Below the pieces are notes generated by a model, which was not told the DNA's origin, did not search any database, and saw only the letters and a list, made by a program, of their open reading frames with translations. A program made the translations under genes and the position numbers. A stretch of 64,000 nucleotides of DNA, taken from assembly GCF_024298765.1 (NCBI RefSeq), contig NZ_CP101210.1; one strand, given 5' to 3'. The stretch is from Escherichia coli (GTDB lineage: Bacteria > Pseudomonadota > Gammaproteobacteria > Enterobacterales > Enterobacteriaceae). Positions 2,064 to 53,562 of the stretch are shown here, one piece after another; positions within the stretch are counted from its first letter, which is position 1; every line of letters begins with the position of its first letter.

Positions 2064-4418
2064 ATGAAAAAACGTATCCCCACTCTCCTGGCCACCATGA
2101 TTGCCACCGCCCTTTATAGTCAACAGGGACTGGCAGCCGACCTCGCCTCACAGTGCATGTTGGGCGTGCCAAGCTATGACCGTCCTCTGGTACAGGGCGA
2201 TACCAATGACTTACCCGTGACTATCAATGCTGACCACGCGAAAGGGGACTACCCGGATGACGCCGTGTTTACTGGCAGCGTGGATATCATGCAGGGTAAC
2301 AGCCGTCTGCAGGCCGACGAAGTGCAGCTCCATCAAAAAGAGGCACCAGGACAACCGGAGCCGGTGCGTACCGTTGATGCGCTCGGTAATGTCCATTACG
2401 ACGATAACCAGGTGATCCTCAAAGGGCCGAAAGGCTGGGCGAATCTGAACACCAAAGATACCAACGTCTGGGAGGGTGATTACCAGATGGTGGGTCGCCA
2501 GGGCCGCGGTAAAGCGGACCTGATGAAACAACGTGGCGAAAACCGCTATACCATTCTGGATAACGGTAGCTTTACCTCCTGTCTGCCGGGTTCTGATACC
2601 TGGAGCGTGGTAGGTAGCGAAATTATTCATGACCGCGAAGAACAAGTTGCGGAGATCTGGAACGCCCGCTTTAAGGTGGGTCCGGTACCGATCTTTTATA
2701 GCCCCTATTTGCAGTTGCCGGTGGGTGACAAACGTCGCTCTGGTTTCTTGATCCCGAACGCCAAGTACACCACCACCAACTACTTTGAGTTCTACCTGCC
2801 ATATTACTGGAACATCGCGCCAAATATGGATGCCACCATCACGCCGCATTATATGCATCGTCGTGGCAATATCATGTGGGAGAACGAATTCCGCTACCTC
2901 TCCCAGGCGGGCGCTGGCTTGATGGAACTGGACTATCTGCCTTCAGATAAAGTCTATGAAGATGAACACCCGAACGATGACAGTTCACGTCGTTGGTTGT
3001 TCTACTGGAAACACTCCGGGGTCATGGATCAGGTGTGGCGTTTCAACGTCGACTACACCAAAGTCAGCGATCCTAGCTACTTCAATGATTTCGATAACAA
3101 ATACGGTTCCAGTACCGACGGCTACGCAACGCAAAAATTCAGCATTGGCTATGCGGTGCAGAACTTCAATGCCACCGTTTCAACCAAGCAGTTCCAGGTC
3201 TTCAGCGAGCAGAACACCAGTAGCTACTCGGCAGAGCCGCAGTTAGACGTTAACTACTACCAGAATGATGTTGGTCCGTTTGATACGCGTATTTACGGCC
3301 AGGCAGTGCACTTTGTTAACACCAGAGATGACATGCCAGAGGCGACTCGTGTTCACCTGGAACCGACCATCAATCTGCCGCTCTCTAATAACTGGGGCAG
3401 CATCAATACTGAAGCGAAGTTGCTGGCAACCCATTATCAGCAAACCAATCTTGACTGGTATAACTCCAGAAACACGACCAGGCTGGCAGAGTCCGCTAAC
3501 CGTGTAATGCCGCAGTTCAAGGTAGACGGTAGAATGGTCTTCGAGCGTGATATGGAAATGCTGGCGCCGGGCTATACCCAGACACTGGAACCACGCGCGC
3601 AGTATCTGTATGTGCCATATCGCGATCAGAGCAAAATCTATAACTACGACTCTTCGCTGCTGCAATCTGACTACTCCGGCCTGTTCCGGGACCGGACTTA
3701 CGGCGGTCTTGACCGTATTGCCTCCGCTAACCAGGTGACGACCGGTGTCACATCTCGCATATATGATGATGCTGCCGTTGAACGTTTTAATATTTCCGTT
3801 GGTCAAATCTACTATTTCACGGAGTCTCGCACTGGCGATGACAACATAACATGGGAGAATGACGACAAAACGGGCTCACTGGTATGGGCAGGCGATACTT
3901 ACTGGCGCATCTCTGATCGTTGGGGATTGCGTGGCGGGATTCAGTACGATACACGTCTGGATAACGTAGCGACCAGTAACTCCAGCATTGAATACCGTCG
4001 GGATGAAGACCGTCTGGTACAGCTGAATTACCGTTACGCCAGCCCGGAATATATTCAGGCAACGCTGCCTAAGTACTATTCCACTGCTGAGCAATATAAG
4101 AATGGTATTTCGCAGGTAGGAGCCGTCGCCAGCTGGCCAATTGCCGATCGTTGGTCCATTGTTGGGGCCTACTACTACGACACCAATGCGAACAAGCAAG
4201 CCGACTCTATGTTAGGTGTGCAATACAGCTCCTGCTGCTATGCGATTCGCGTCGGTTACGAGCGGAAGCTGAACGGTTGGGATAACGATAAACAACATGC
4301 GGTATATGACAACGCAATCGGCTTTAACATCGAACTTCGCGGCCTGAGCTCCAACTACGGTCTGGGTACGCAAGAGATGCTGCGTTCGAACATTCTGCCG
4401 TATCAAAACACTTTGTGA
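2064..4418 (+). CDS. lptD: LPS assembly outer membrane protein LptD
   Basis: 784-aa ORF, signal peptide, recognised LptD sequence; upstream of surA. Confidence 0.95.
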
Positions 4419-16549: not shown

Positions 16550-17320
16550 TTAAATGACTTTGCGAAGATTTTCAGCAAATGCGGCGATCTGTTCTTCGCC
16601 GTCGCCTTCAATCACGATGCGCTGACGCTCGCGCTGTTTCGGCGCGGCAACCTGTTGTTCTGACCAGGCTGCCTCTGCGTTAAAACCGATATCCGCCGCC
16701 GACCATACCTGGACTGGCTTTTTCGCCGCGCCGAGAATGGCTTTCATCGAAGGAATTTGTGGGGAGTTGATATCAGTGGAAACAGCAACAACCGCAGGCA
16801 GCGGAATGCTTAAGGTTTCTGTTTCATCTTCCAGTTCGCGCTCAACGGTGAGGGTATCTGCAGTCAGGGAGATAATTTTGCTGACGCCGTTAACTGCCGG
16901 AATATTAAGGATTTCGCCTACCAGCAAACCAACCTGCTGGGCATAAAGGTCGGAAGAACCATCGCCACAGAGGATCAAATCAAAGCCTGCTTTCTGAGCG
17001 GCTGCAGCCAGTACGCTCGCCGTTTGTTGCGGCAGTGCCTGCTCGAACTGGTCATCAATCACCACAATCAGTTCATCCGGACCGCGCGATAGCACATCTT
17101 TACGCCCTTTGGCGTTGGTCAGGGCTTTACCGCCCACACTTAAGGCCGTCACCTGCGCCTCTGCTGCCTGTTGCTTTAGCTGGCAAGCCGCTTCAATAGC
17201 GTTGAGATCGTATTGGCTTATTTTGGCATCGGCTTTGCTGAAGTCTAACGAACCATCAGCATTATTGACCGCAATATCCTGTTCATCAGGCACGCACTTA
17301 TAGCAAGTAATAATCTTCAT
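16550..17320 (-). CDS. fixA: Electron transfer flavoprotein beta-subunit homologue FixA
   Basis: 256 aa from ATG at 17320 ([15 protein letters not shown]). Confidence 0.93.
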
Positions 17321-17450
17321 TGCATCTCCAGAAATCATGAAGGAAACGTCGTTCATATCGGTGGTGTTAATTACAGATATCACGCCCTTTAATTTGGAAA
17401 TAAAACTTTAATCACCAATATTGAAAATGTCACACGCAGATAAATCCAAC

Positions 17451-17485
17451 TTTCAATATTGTTAAGCTCCTCACCAATATTGAAA
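17451..17485. promoter_or_regulatory. Putative CaiF activator site: 11-bp inverted repeats TTTCAATATTG / CAATATTGAAA separated by 13 bp
   Basis: Perfect inverted-repeat half-sites with 13-bp spacer in the divergent fix/cai control region; matches the published architecture of CaiF sites as I recall it. Confidence 0.6.
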
Positions 17486-17507
17486 ACATGGCGTAGAAAA
17501 AAGAAAT

Positions 17508-17542
17508 TTTCAATATTGTTTTATGGATCACCAATATTGAAA
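17508..17542. promoter_or_regulatory. Second putative CaiF site, same half-sites with 13-bp spacer
   Basis: Second copy of TTTCAATATTG-N13-CAATATTGAAA. Confidence 0.6.
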
Positions 17543-17636
17543 GTCAGATGCTATTTTTTACTCACAACAGAACATAACAAACTGATTAATAATCAAAATT
17601 AACGAAAAAATGCCCTCTATTCACCCGAAACAAAAA

Positions 17637-17652
17637 TGTGATAACAATCACA
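17637..17652. promoter_or_regulatory. CRP binding site (TGTGA-N6-TCACA) in cai/fix intergenic region
   Basis: Perfect match to the CRP consensus core TGTGATAACAATCACA. Confidence 0.7.
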
Positions 17653-17788
17653 GAATGCAGCTTATTGAATACCCATTATGAGTTAGCCATTAACGCGTCC
17701 ACGAGGTTAATAATAATTATATTAAATGTTAACAAAAATAAAACAAACGGGAACGCAAAATAAATGTTCGTTTTCACAGTGGAATTAA

Positions 17789-19306
<1,518 letters not shown>

Positions 19307-25049: not shown

Positions 25050-25445
25050 TTAACGACGCATACTCTTTGACAACATCATCTGCCACTTCTGCTCGCGGTT
25101 AAGTTCCGTGAGCGGAACGGCAGGAATACGCGGCGTCTTTCTTACGCCGACTAATTTATCCCGGCTGTTATTGCGCAGACGCGCGTAAATTTGCTCATCG
25201 ATATCAACCACTTTTACCAGTCGCTGGCACTGGCATCCCCGCCCTTCCAGCTTATTAGGGATCATCTTAACTTCGCAGCTTATTTCTGTGACTTCCGACA
25301 GAATATAAGTCAGGGTATTAACCGCCTTGCTGTGTTCAATATCGAAATGAATAGAGATCTCTCTTGCTATCACCCACCGGTTTTCAGCCATCATCCATTC
25401 GGCGATTAACAAATAGAGTGGTTTTTCAACACATCCTTCACACAT
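25050..25445 (-). CDS. caiF: Transcriptional activator of cai/fix operons
   Basis: 131 aa from ATG at 25445 (MCEGCVEKPLYLLIAEW). Confidence 0.9.
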   Translation of the reverse strand: MCEGCVEKPLYLLIAEWMMAENRWVIAREISIHFDIEHSKAVNTLTYILSEVTEISCEVKMIPNKLEGRGCQCQRLVKVVDIDEQIYARLRNNSRDKLVGVRKTPRIPAVPLTELNREQKWQMMLSKSMRR

Positions 25446-52275: not shown

Positions 52276-53562
52276 TTACTGATGATTCATCATCAATTTA
52301 CGCAACGCAGCAAAATCGGCGGGCAGGTTATGCGAAAGCAAGGGTAAATCAGCACGTTCTGCCAGCTCTTTTGGCAGATCCAACGTTTCACCGAGAATCG
52401 CTTCCACGCTCTCTTTAAATTTCGCCGGATGCGCGGTGCCGAGGAACAAGCCATATTCGCCTGGATTCAACTGGTCACGCAGCGCACGATAAGCTACGGC
52501 AGCGTGCGGCTCCGAGGTATAGCCCAGTTCTTTTAACTCACGCATTGTCTGTTGCGTGGTTTCATCATCCACGGCTGCATACCCCAGCTCTTTCAGTTGC
52601 CAGATTTTGCGGCGGAACAACTCTTCCACACGCGGCCAGTTGTTTGGCTGGCTAACATCCATCGCATTGGATAACGTCGCCTGAGTCGCTTTGGGTGACC
52701 ACTGACCGTCGTGCAGGAAACGTGGCACGGTATCGTTCACGTTGGTCGCAGCAATAAAACGTTTCACCGGCAGACCGAGTGACTTCGCCAGCAGACCCGC
52801 CGTCAAATCGCCGAAGTTTCCGCTTGGCACCGAGACAACCAGCTGGTTGCGCGCTTCCTGCGGCAGCTGCGCAACAGCTTCAAAGTAGTAGCAAATCTGC
52901 GCCAGCAAACGGCTGATGTTAATCGAGTTAGCTGAGTTTAGCCCCAGCGCCACTTTCAGTTCTTCATCATCAAACGCCTGCTTCACCAGCGCCTGACAGG
53001 CATCGAAATCGCCGTCGATGGCAACAGTTTCAATATTGCCGCCCAATGTACAGAACAGTTTTTCTTGCAGTGGACTGATTTTGCCTCGTGGATAGAGGAT
53101 AACCACTTTCACATTCGGCAAACCGTAGAAAGCATGAGCCACTGCCGCTCCGGTATCACCGGAGGTCGCGGTCAGAATGGTCACTGGCTTATCGCCCGCA
53201 ATATGGGTCAGCATTTGTGCCATAAAGCGACCGCCGAAATCTTTAAATGCCAGCGTTGGCCCGTGAAACAACTCCAGACAACCGACATCGCTTTCAACAT
53301 TGGCGACCGGAGCCGGGAAGGCAAACGCCGCGCGTACGCGCTCTTCCAGGATTTCCTGCGGGATTTCATCACCAATAAACGCCGAGAGGATCTTCGCACT
53401 GCGGGTGACAAAATCCAGCTTCAGCATCTCATCAATTTCAGTCAGGCTGAATTCCGGCAGGTCGTGCGGGAAAAACAGCCCCTGATTTTTGCCCAACCCC
53501 TGGGTTACGGCTTGCGCAAAGCTGACCTGCTCATTGTGATCTTTCAGATTGTAGAGTTTCAT
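52276..53562 (-). CDS. thrC: Threonine synthase
   Basis: 428-aa ORF. Confidence 0.97.
   Translation of the reverse strand: MKLYNLKDHNEQVSFAQAVTQGLGKNQGLFFPHDLPEFSLTEIDEMLKLDFVTRSAKILSAFIGDEIPQEILEERVRAAFAFPAPVANVESDVGCLELFHGPTLAFKDFGGRFMAQMLTHIAGDKPVTILTATSGDTGAAVAHAFYGLPNVKVVILYPRGKISPLQEKLFCTLGGNIETVAIDGDFDACQALVKQAFDDEELKVALGLNSANSINISRLLAQICYYFEAVAQLPQEARNQLVVSVPSGNFGDLTAGLLAKSLGLPVKRFIAATNVNDTVPRFLHDGQWSPKATQATLSNAMDVSQPNNWPRVEELFRRKIWQLKELGYAAVDDETTQQTMRELKELGYTSEPHAAVAYRALRDQLNPGEYGLFLGTAHPAKFKESVEAILGETLDLPKELAERADLPLLSHNLPADFAALRKLMMNHQ

Follow-up and report, generated by a model that had tools for sequence, protein, structure and literature searches.

In gut Enterobacterales, CaiF governs the anaerobic pathway of carnitine, which is the first step on the route to gamma-butyrobetaine and TMA. 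The cai and fix transcripts reportedly begin 289 bp apart, with a perfect CRP site at -41.5 of cai and weaker CRP sites at -69.5 and -126.5 of fix. For cai transcription, a 50-bp segment in cis that overlaps the start of the fix mRNA is also said to be required, and it was seen as the likely carrier of the CaiF signal. Two CaiF sites of the cai-fix region, F1 and F2, are described as 5'-TTTCAATATTG-N13-CAATATTGAAA-3' (Buchet et al. 1999, as cited in PMC12083890 and PMC3680233). The secondary literature consulted gives only the two sites and does not list the further box that is the subject of the present analysis. Several CRP molecules act on cai-fix, and the fix and cai promoters are served by different ones (Shimada et al. 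2011). CaiF is the sensor protein of current carnitine biosensors, and the fix promoter is their CaiF-responsive output. In our literature search, no ChIP-exo, DAP-seq, SELEX or RegPrecise data on CaiF and no mention of a third site were found. The virulence regulator GrlA is a homologue of CaiF (PMC9979310). It is reported to bind the 18-bp spacer between -10 and -35 of the LEE1 promoter P1 (Islam et al. 2011, as cited in PMC10877973), and it is present as a single chain in the GrlR2-GrlA complex.

Here, we analysed a 64,000-nucleotide stretch of DNA from Escherichia coli (NZ_CP101210.1), called the window below. The fixA/caiT intergenic region occupies 17321-17791, between fixA (16550-17320, minus strand, 256 aa, ATG at 17320) and caiT (17792-19306, plus strand, 504 aa, ATG at 17792). 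From it, the two carnitine operons of E. coli are controlled divergently, fixABCX being read leftward and caiTABCDE rightward. The activator gene caiF is located at 25050-25445 on the minus strand, and its 131-aa product is assigned to the CaiF_GrlA family by a score of 26.6 bits against PF07180 (cut-off 25). The window is 100% identical to E. coli strain SCU-171. This segment of it was found in 5,394 of 5,426 complete genomes, and all five half-sites described below, as well as the three TCAC extensions, are identical in K-12 MG1655. In E. coli SFE8 (NZ_CP051219.1), homology to the window begins at about 17545; caiT is retained, fixA and all five CaiF boxes are gone, and an IS26 transposase gene (740-1748 of the SFE8 locus) adjoins the control region.

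A pattern search with the 11-mer CAATATTGAAA returned five exact copies within 127 bp (17416-17542), and a sixth exact copy in the 64-kb window at 53028-53038, within a coding ORF. When one mismatch to the 11-mer was allowed, 10 matches were found versus 1.40 +/- 1.45 in shuffled sequences, with none of the 100 shuffles reaching 10. Similarly, the 15-mer TCACCAATATTGAAA occurs exactly three times, at 17412, 17471, and 17528, and six times with up to two mismatches, where 0.14 matches are expected. The clustering of half-site copies is far above chance. The original prediction, made from the letters of the window, had placed three copies of TCACCAATATTGAAA and two complete sites in this region, and its coordinates were exact. 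Three further copies were set aside as chance occurrences: one at 25337, with one mismatch, inside the caiF coding sequence, and those at 53028 (exact) and 53292, both inside a 428-aa ORF and without TCAC. The core of all five half-sites (for example, 17416-17423) is a perfect 8-bp palindrome, CAATATTG. Despite this palindromic core, the flanks TCAC and AAA make the half-site an asymmetric unit.

Four of the five half-sites make up two complete sites. The fix-proximal one spans 17451-17485 (TTTCAATATTG at 17451-17461, N13, CAATATTGAAA at 17475-17485) and the cai-proximal one 17508-17542 (TTTCAATATTG at 17508-17518, N13, CAATATTGAAA at 17532-17542). Both are perfect inverted repeats of two 11-bp half-sites around N13. 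Because F1 and F2 are given in this same form in PMC12083890 and PMC3680233, both repeats are published CaiF sites, each being F1 or F2, and are already known; the CaiF architecture proposed for them at the outset matches. Their arms are invariant in Escherichia, and the spacer of the fix-proximal site is variable at 3 of its 13 positions.

A weak CRP site is nested in the spacer of each complete CaiF repeat. The CRP-like sequence TGTTAAGCTCCTCACC (17460-17475, centre 17467.5) lies within the fix-proximal site and reads TGTTA-N6-TCACC, which matches TGTGA-N6-TCACA at 8/10 positions. Its counterpart within the cai-proximal site, TGTTTTATGGATCACC (17517-17532, centre 17524.5), reads TGTTT-N6-TCACC and matches at 7/10. 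The TCACC ahead of the right arm of each complete site doubles as the CRP-type right arm. We take 17460-17475 to be CRP site 2, at -69.5 of fix, and 17517-17532 is presumably CRP site 3, at -126.5 of fix. A perfect CRP site (10/10), TGTGATAACAATCACA, was mapped to 17637-17652, and the -10 element of cai, CATTAT, to 17674-17679. In Escherichia, the arms of the perfect site are largely conserved and its spacer is variable. If this site is at the reported distance of 41.5 bp upstream of the cai start, that start would be at about 17686, and subtracting the reported 289 bp would place the fix start at about 17398. With this fix start, the two CRP-like centres fall at exactly -69.5 and -126.5. On the same inferred starts, the centre of the fix-proximal CaiF site (17468) is at about -70 of fix, and that of the cai-proximal site (17525) at about -127 of fix and -161 of cai.

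The fifth half-site stands by itself. This lone CaiF-type box, TCACCAATATTGAAA at 17412-17426 (plus strand; TTTCAATATTGGTGA in the fix sense), lies at -14 to -28 of the inferred fix start, in the cai-fix control region of a genome that encodes caiF. It is the same 15-mer, letter for letter and including TCAC, as the right arms of both published sites, and it is not part of an inverted repeat of the F1/F2 type. At the N13 partner position (17392-17402, ATTTGGAAATA), 4/11 letters agree with TTTCAATATTG, and 6/11 is the most that is reached when the spacing is varied between N9 and N17, for a background of 3.25 +/- 1.59 among intergenic 11-mers. Across 20 genera, the N13 partner position averages 4.55/11. 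These values rule out a hidden partner half-site and confirm that the copy is an orphan, as had been proposed.

It had further been suggested that the recognised unit is longer than 11 bp, as TCAC precedes all three right-type copies. In a script count, TCAC is found ahead of the lone box in 18/20 genus representatives, and one exception was a mis-picked site whose true box has TCAC. Right half-sites are preceded by TCAC in 18/23 cases and by TCAA in 4. Left half-sites are never preceded by TCAC; TTAA, AAAA, and others are found instead. Since TCAC accompanies the lone box and the right arms and never the left arms, the conserved unit is asymmetric and exceeds 11 bp, and the real unit of the lone box appears to be the asymmetric 14-15-mer TCACCAATATTGAA(A). 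This part of the suggestion stands; at the full sites it is weakened, in that TCACC there is also a CRP-like arm and CRP may share the credit for TCAC. A CRP half-site was also considered for the TCAC of the lone box and was ruled out: the lone box has no TGTGA-N6-TCACA dyad (TAAAA-N6-TCACC in E. coli), and its CRP-type left arm, TAAAA or TAATA, scores 2/5 in 20/20 genera, so CRP is not the reason for its TCAC.

The position of the lone box coincides with that of the predicted fix promoter. In a consensus scan of 17300-17800, the sole sigma-70-like match on the fix strand consists of the -35-like hexamer GTGACA (17428-17433, minus strand) and the -10-like hexamer TAAAGT (17405-17410, minus strand), separated by 17 bp and matching at 9/12 positions. 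TAAAGT predicts a start at about 17398, in agreement with the fix start obtained from the reported CRP positions and the reported 289-bp distance. The lone box fills the 17-bp spacer between the predicted hexamers exactly. The GTGACA hexamer is conserved in the Escherichia/Citrobacter/Salmonella group and in Limnobaculum only, and the GTGACA/TAAAGT pair is not conserved beyond Escherichia, Citrobacter, and Salmonella; what is conserved there is TWTTAT, 5 bp further downstream. In E. coli, this corresponds to the block AAATAAAAC (17398-17406, minus strand), located 5 bp downstream of the predicted -10 and reading GTTTTATTT in the fix sense, or GTATTATTT in distant genera. Elsewhere, the -10-like block reads GGTTTTATTT or GGTATTATTT in the fix sense. 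The AAATAAAAC block may represent the start region or serve as another -10 (TTTTAT/TATTAT). With TWTTAT as the -10, the lone box would be at about -19 to -33, over the -35 position, and under either choice it lies inside the predicted core promoter of fix. As it lies between the two inferred divergent starts, the lone box would not be transcribed, and no Rfam match better than E = 0.5 was obtained for the region. A second block conserved across 20 genera (17370-17384, consensus aatA.A..TA.CA) is found in the inferred fix leader, at a fixed 15 bp from the AAATAAAAC block. Next to it in E. coli is TGTTAATTAC, which we take to resemble an ArcA half-box.

The conservation of the boxes was followed in 80 CaiT-anchored loci, one genome per species, from which the fixA-caiT intergenic regions were extracted. 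The Escherichia set comprised 11 lineages. Among them were E. albertii, E. whittamii, and a cryptic clade, as well as E. coli strains with identities as low as 93%. Among these 11 lineages, neither the lone box nor the other four half-sites have a single variable position, and 17409-17445 is invariant throughout. Variation per bp in Escherichia is 0.23 in the spacer of the first repeat, 0.41 in 17486-17507, and 0.66 in 17543-17636. This last stretch, from the cai-proximal CaiF site to the perfect CRP site, is hypervariable (62 of 94 columns in the 11 Escherichia sequences); the half on the fix side (17321-17545) hardly varies in Escherichia.

Beyond Escherichia, the lone box was found in 20/21 Enterobacterales genera. 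The exception is Entomohabitans, where the centre of the box is replaced (TCACCCGACGTCGCTGAAC) and fixA is kept. Each position of TCACCAATATTGAA is at least 90% conserved in the 20 genus representatives, unlike most columns on either side. Where the leader is short (14 genera), the lone box is 93-98 bp from the fixA ATG. The number of full repeats varies from 0 to 3 per genus: Proteus has three; Escherichia, Citrobacter, and Salmonella have two; Yokenella, Pluralibacter, Atlantibacter, Trabulsiella, and RIT691 have one; and Edwardsiella, Hafnia, Leminorella, Limnobaculum, and Serratia sp. H1w have none and carry the lone box only. In Providencia, the left arms have decayed and the TCAC-bearing right arms are still there. 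On this comparative evidence, the lone box is strongly selected and is the most deeply conserved CaiF-type box, above the published sites.

Several other features of these control regions were observed. In Budvicia aquatica, two direct copies of TCACCAATATTGAAA without an inverted partner lie 27 bp apart (298-340 of the intergenic region), each preceded by a similar stretch containing AATAC. In the five genera that have the lone box only, TTTGATTAAGATCAC replaces the cai-proximal CRP site. This sequence is FNR-like (TTGAT-N4-ATCAc) and is found at about 400-450 of the intergenic region, upstream of a conserved CATTATAA. Its presence in place of the CRP site suggests a switch of global regulator.

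The spacing of the boxes is nearly constant: across genera, the lone box is 59-61 bp from the next right arm, and successive right arms are 56-59 bp apart. In Proteus mirabilis, a 59-bp tandem repeat (2492-2624 of the locus; 2.3 copies, 78% matches) is present, whose unit extends from one right arm through the inter-site DNA to the next left arm. Duplication of this unit seems to be how the CaiF-box array grows. The lone copy could then be a functionless relic of the tandem duplication behind the two full sites, for which the 57-59 bp period of the boxes and the repeat still detectable in Proteus would speak. This origin is hardly tenable, and the conservation data contradict it: no other box is as well conserved, and the lone box persists in genera that lack full sites. 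In addition, TRF detected no tandem repeat in the E. coli control region, and so the flanks have diverged there while the box has not.

The same spacings bear on a second alternative, in which the lone box would be an architectural part of a five-box CaiF array (> < > < >). With the left arm of the neighbouring full site (CAATATTGAAA-N24-TTTCAATATTG), it would help to form a wrapped or looped CaiF-CRP complex that acts mainly for cai and makes no contact with RNA polymerase at fix. The fixed distances across genera, the 59-bp tandem repeat of Proteus, and the reported need of the fix-start segment for cai transcription about 290 bp away all fit such an array. It leaves unexplained, however, why the box keeps a fixed distance to the conserved -10-like block, and in genera that have only the lone box there is nothing for it to pair with. 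We consider this role improbable.

The presence of the lone box goes together with that of caiF. Of the genera with only the lone box, Edwardsiella and Hafnia were checked, and both encode CaiF_GrlA proteins in the same cluster. These proteins are 52-54% identical to E. coli CaiF, and Y11, N43, Y47, and R75 are invariant in the three; in published alanine scanning, alanine substitution of these residues impaired the E. coli CaiF biosensor. In Shewanella indica, where cai and fix are present, no CaiF_GrlA gene was found within 10 kb, and the box was not found in the Shewanella loci. When the long intergenic regions of distant genera were searched for caiF, none was found in them.

The gene order around these clusters also differs. 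An MFS transporter gene follows fixX in Edwardsiella, Hafnia, and Shewanella. In Edwardsiella and Hafnia, an alpha/beta-hydrolase gene lies between the MFS gene and caiF, and caiF is on the fix side, unlike E. coli caiF, which sits after caiE. In Shewanella, the hydrolase gene is on the cai side. In Edwardsiella, TCACGAATATTGCA, a copy with two mismatches, was mapped to 3081-3094 (minus strand) of the cluster, between the divergent caiF and alpha/beta-hydrolase genes. It may be a further CaiF-type box; 0.04 copies with two mismatches are expected per locus, and such a copy is absent in Hafnia.

The association with caiF also weighs on whether the 15-mer is conserved for reasons other than CaiF, either as core promoter for RNA polymerase or as a target of some other factor, such as CRP reading its TCAC as a half-site. 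Its overlap with the core promoter, the use of TCACC as a CRP-type arm in both full sites, and the conservation alongside it of flanking blocks unlike the CaiF motif can all be read in this sense. Yet the box is letter for letter the right arm of the published CaiF sites, it tracks caiF, its CRP-type left arm remains at 2/5 in all 20 genera, and conservation of every base throughout an order is unusual for a promoter spacer. Conservation for such reasons is therefore quite improbable in our estimate.

For the lone box, we propose the role of a third CaiF-type box, a candidate single-protomer CaiF site that would activate fix from within the core promoter, being of low affinity and cooperatively occupied. 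We give this reading an even chance of being right; that CaiF binds the lone box, in which direction it acts, and that it does so cooperatively are parts of it that we infer. Two points lead us to propose single-protomer activation: the analogy with GrlA, and the several caiF-bearing genera in which no CaiF-type box other than the lone one is present. Counting against the proposal are the optimal 17-bp length of the predicted spacer, its dissimilarity to the LEE1 spacer, the restriction of GTGACA and TAAAGT to few genera, and the disrupted box of Entomohabitans. One CaiF protomer would bind the lone box weakly when alone, and occupancy would come from cooperation with CaiF at the full site 47-49 bp upstream, with RNA polymerase, or with both. 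CaiF bound there would touch and switch on the fix promoter from a position like that of GrlA in the spacer of LEE1 P1. The full sites further upstream would have been added later, in variable copy number, and would raise occupancy and serve the distant cai promoter.

A low-affinity or cooperative site had already been put forward in the original prediction, which had noted neither the location of the orphan in the fix core promoter nor its rank as the most conserved box. Such a site is plausible and consistent with the two CaiF sites given in the secondary literature, since low intrinsic affinity at the lone box would explain why only two footprints were reported. It counts against CaiF binding, however, that two sites were reported although the 289-bp fragment includes the lone box, so that purified CaiF alone probably leaves no footprint there.

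The position of the lone box can also be read in the opposite sense, since sites within promoter spacers are more often repressive, which counts against an activator. CaiF, or another protein that reads the 15-mer, could limit or shut off fix from between the -35 and -10, and such a negative element could balance fix against cai or hold the promoter closed without inducer. The interval from -14 to -28, within the spacer, is the typical place of operators that block RNA polymerase, and GTGACA/17 bp/TAAAGT is a fair promoter on its own (9/12), yet fix needs activators. Deletion of the region around the fix start is nevertheless said to have abolished cai expression rather than raised it. Moreover, the lone box is the sole CaiF-type box in five genera, for operons that CaiF activates in E. 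coli, and the homologue GrlA activates from a spacer (PMC10877973). A negative element is thus unlikely in our view.

We favour activation from the core promoter, and a wider form of this proposal can be sketched. The lone 14-15-mer would be the ancestral and sufficient CaiF operator, and a protomer at the spacer or the -35 would be the conserved mode of CaiF and GrlA. F1 and F2 would be lineage-specific amplifiers that arose from 57-59-bp duplications, and the lone box would itself be the 50-bp element needed for cai about 290 bp away. We hold this wider scheme to be possible, but it is tentative and on the whole doubtful. The lone box, by our assumption, is within the reported 50-bp segment at the fix start, and F1 and F2 are outside it. 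If the lone box is active, it would provide a sequence basis for the reported need of the fix-start segment for cai expression, and the reported deletion result would gain a concrete sequence.

Should CaiF act through the box embedded in the promoter, the accepted model with two sites would be incomplete. A mode of action common to CaiF and the virulence regulator GrlA would follow, and the 15-bp element would offer a defined place for tuning biosensor promoters. Should the box not be a site of CaiF, the finding shrinks to a re-description of known sites. What is new is the third CaiF-type box, which refines a small and well-studied regulon.

The comparison with F1 and F2 is the most direct. 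In sequence, the lone box equals their right arm together with TCAC; F1 and F2 are centred at about -70 and -127 with an inverted partner, whereas the lone box is in the fix core promoter without one. Among the CRP sites 1-3 of cai-fix, those nested in the CaiF spacers use the TCACC of the full sites as their right arm, but the lone box lacks the CRP left arm (2/5) and is therefore not a CRP site. MerR-type activators also bind between -35 and -10. They belong to a fold family unrelated to CaiF, bind as dimers to a palindrome in a 19-20-bp spacer, and act by untwisting; in contrast, the lone box is asymmetric and single, in a 17-bp spacer. The class II boxes of MarA, SoxS, and Rob are asymmetric and have a fixed orientation near or over the -35, which would fit the lone box if TWTTAT is the -10 (-19 to -33). 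These proteins are of another family, however, and their boxes are 20 bp long and centred near -40.

Finally, GrlA at LEE1 P1 shares several features with the proposed arrangement. Like CaiF, it belongs to the Pfam CaiF_GrlA family, and its single target is between the -35 (xTGACA) and the -10, as that of CaiF would be in the predicted fix promoter; a single protomer is probable in both systems. The LEE1 distal promoter sequence was seen in O157 genomes about 170 bp upstream of ler. The fix spacer and the LEE1 P1 spacer have no sequence similarity to each other, as equally good scores were obtained with 71% of shuffles. At LEE1 P1, the spacer measures 18 bp and is suboptimal, whereas the predicted fix spacer is 17 bp and optimal, and CaiF, unlike GrlA, has upstream dimer-type sites and CRP co-activation.
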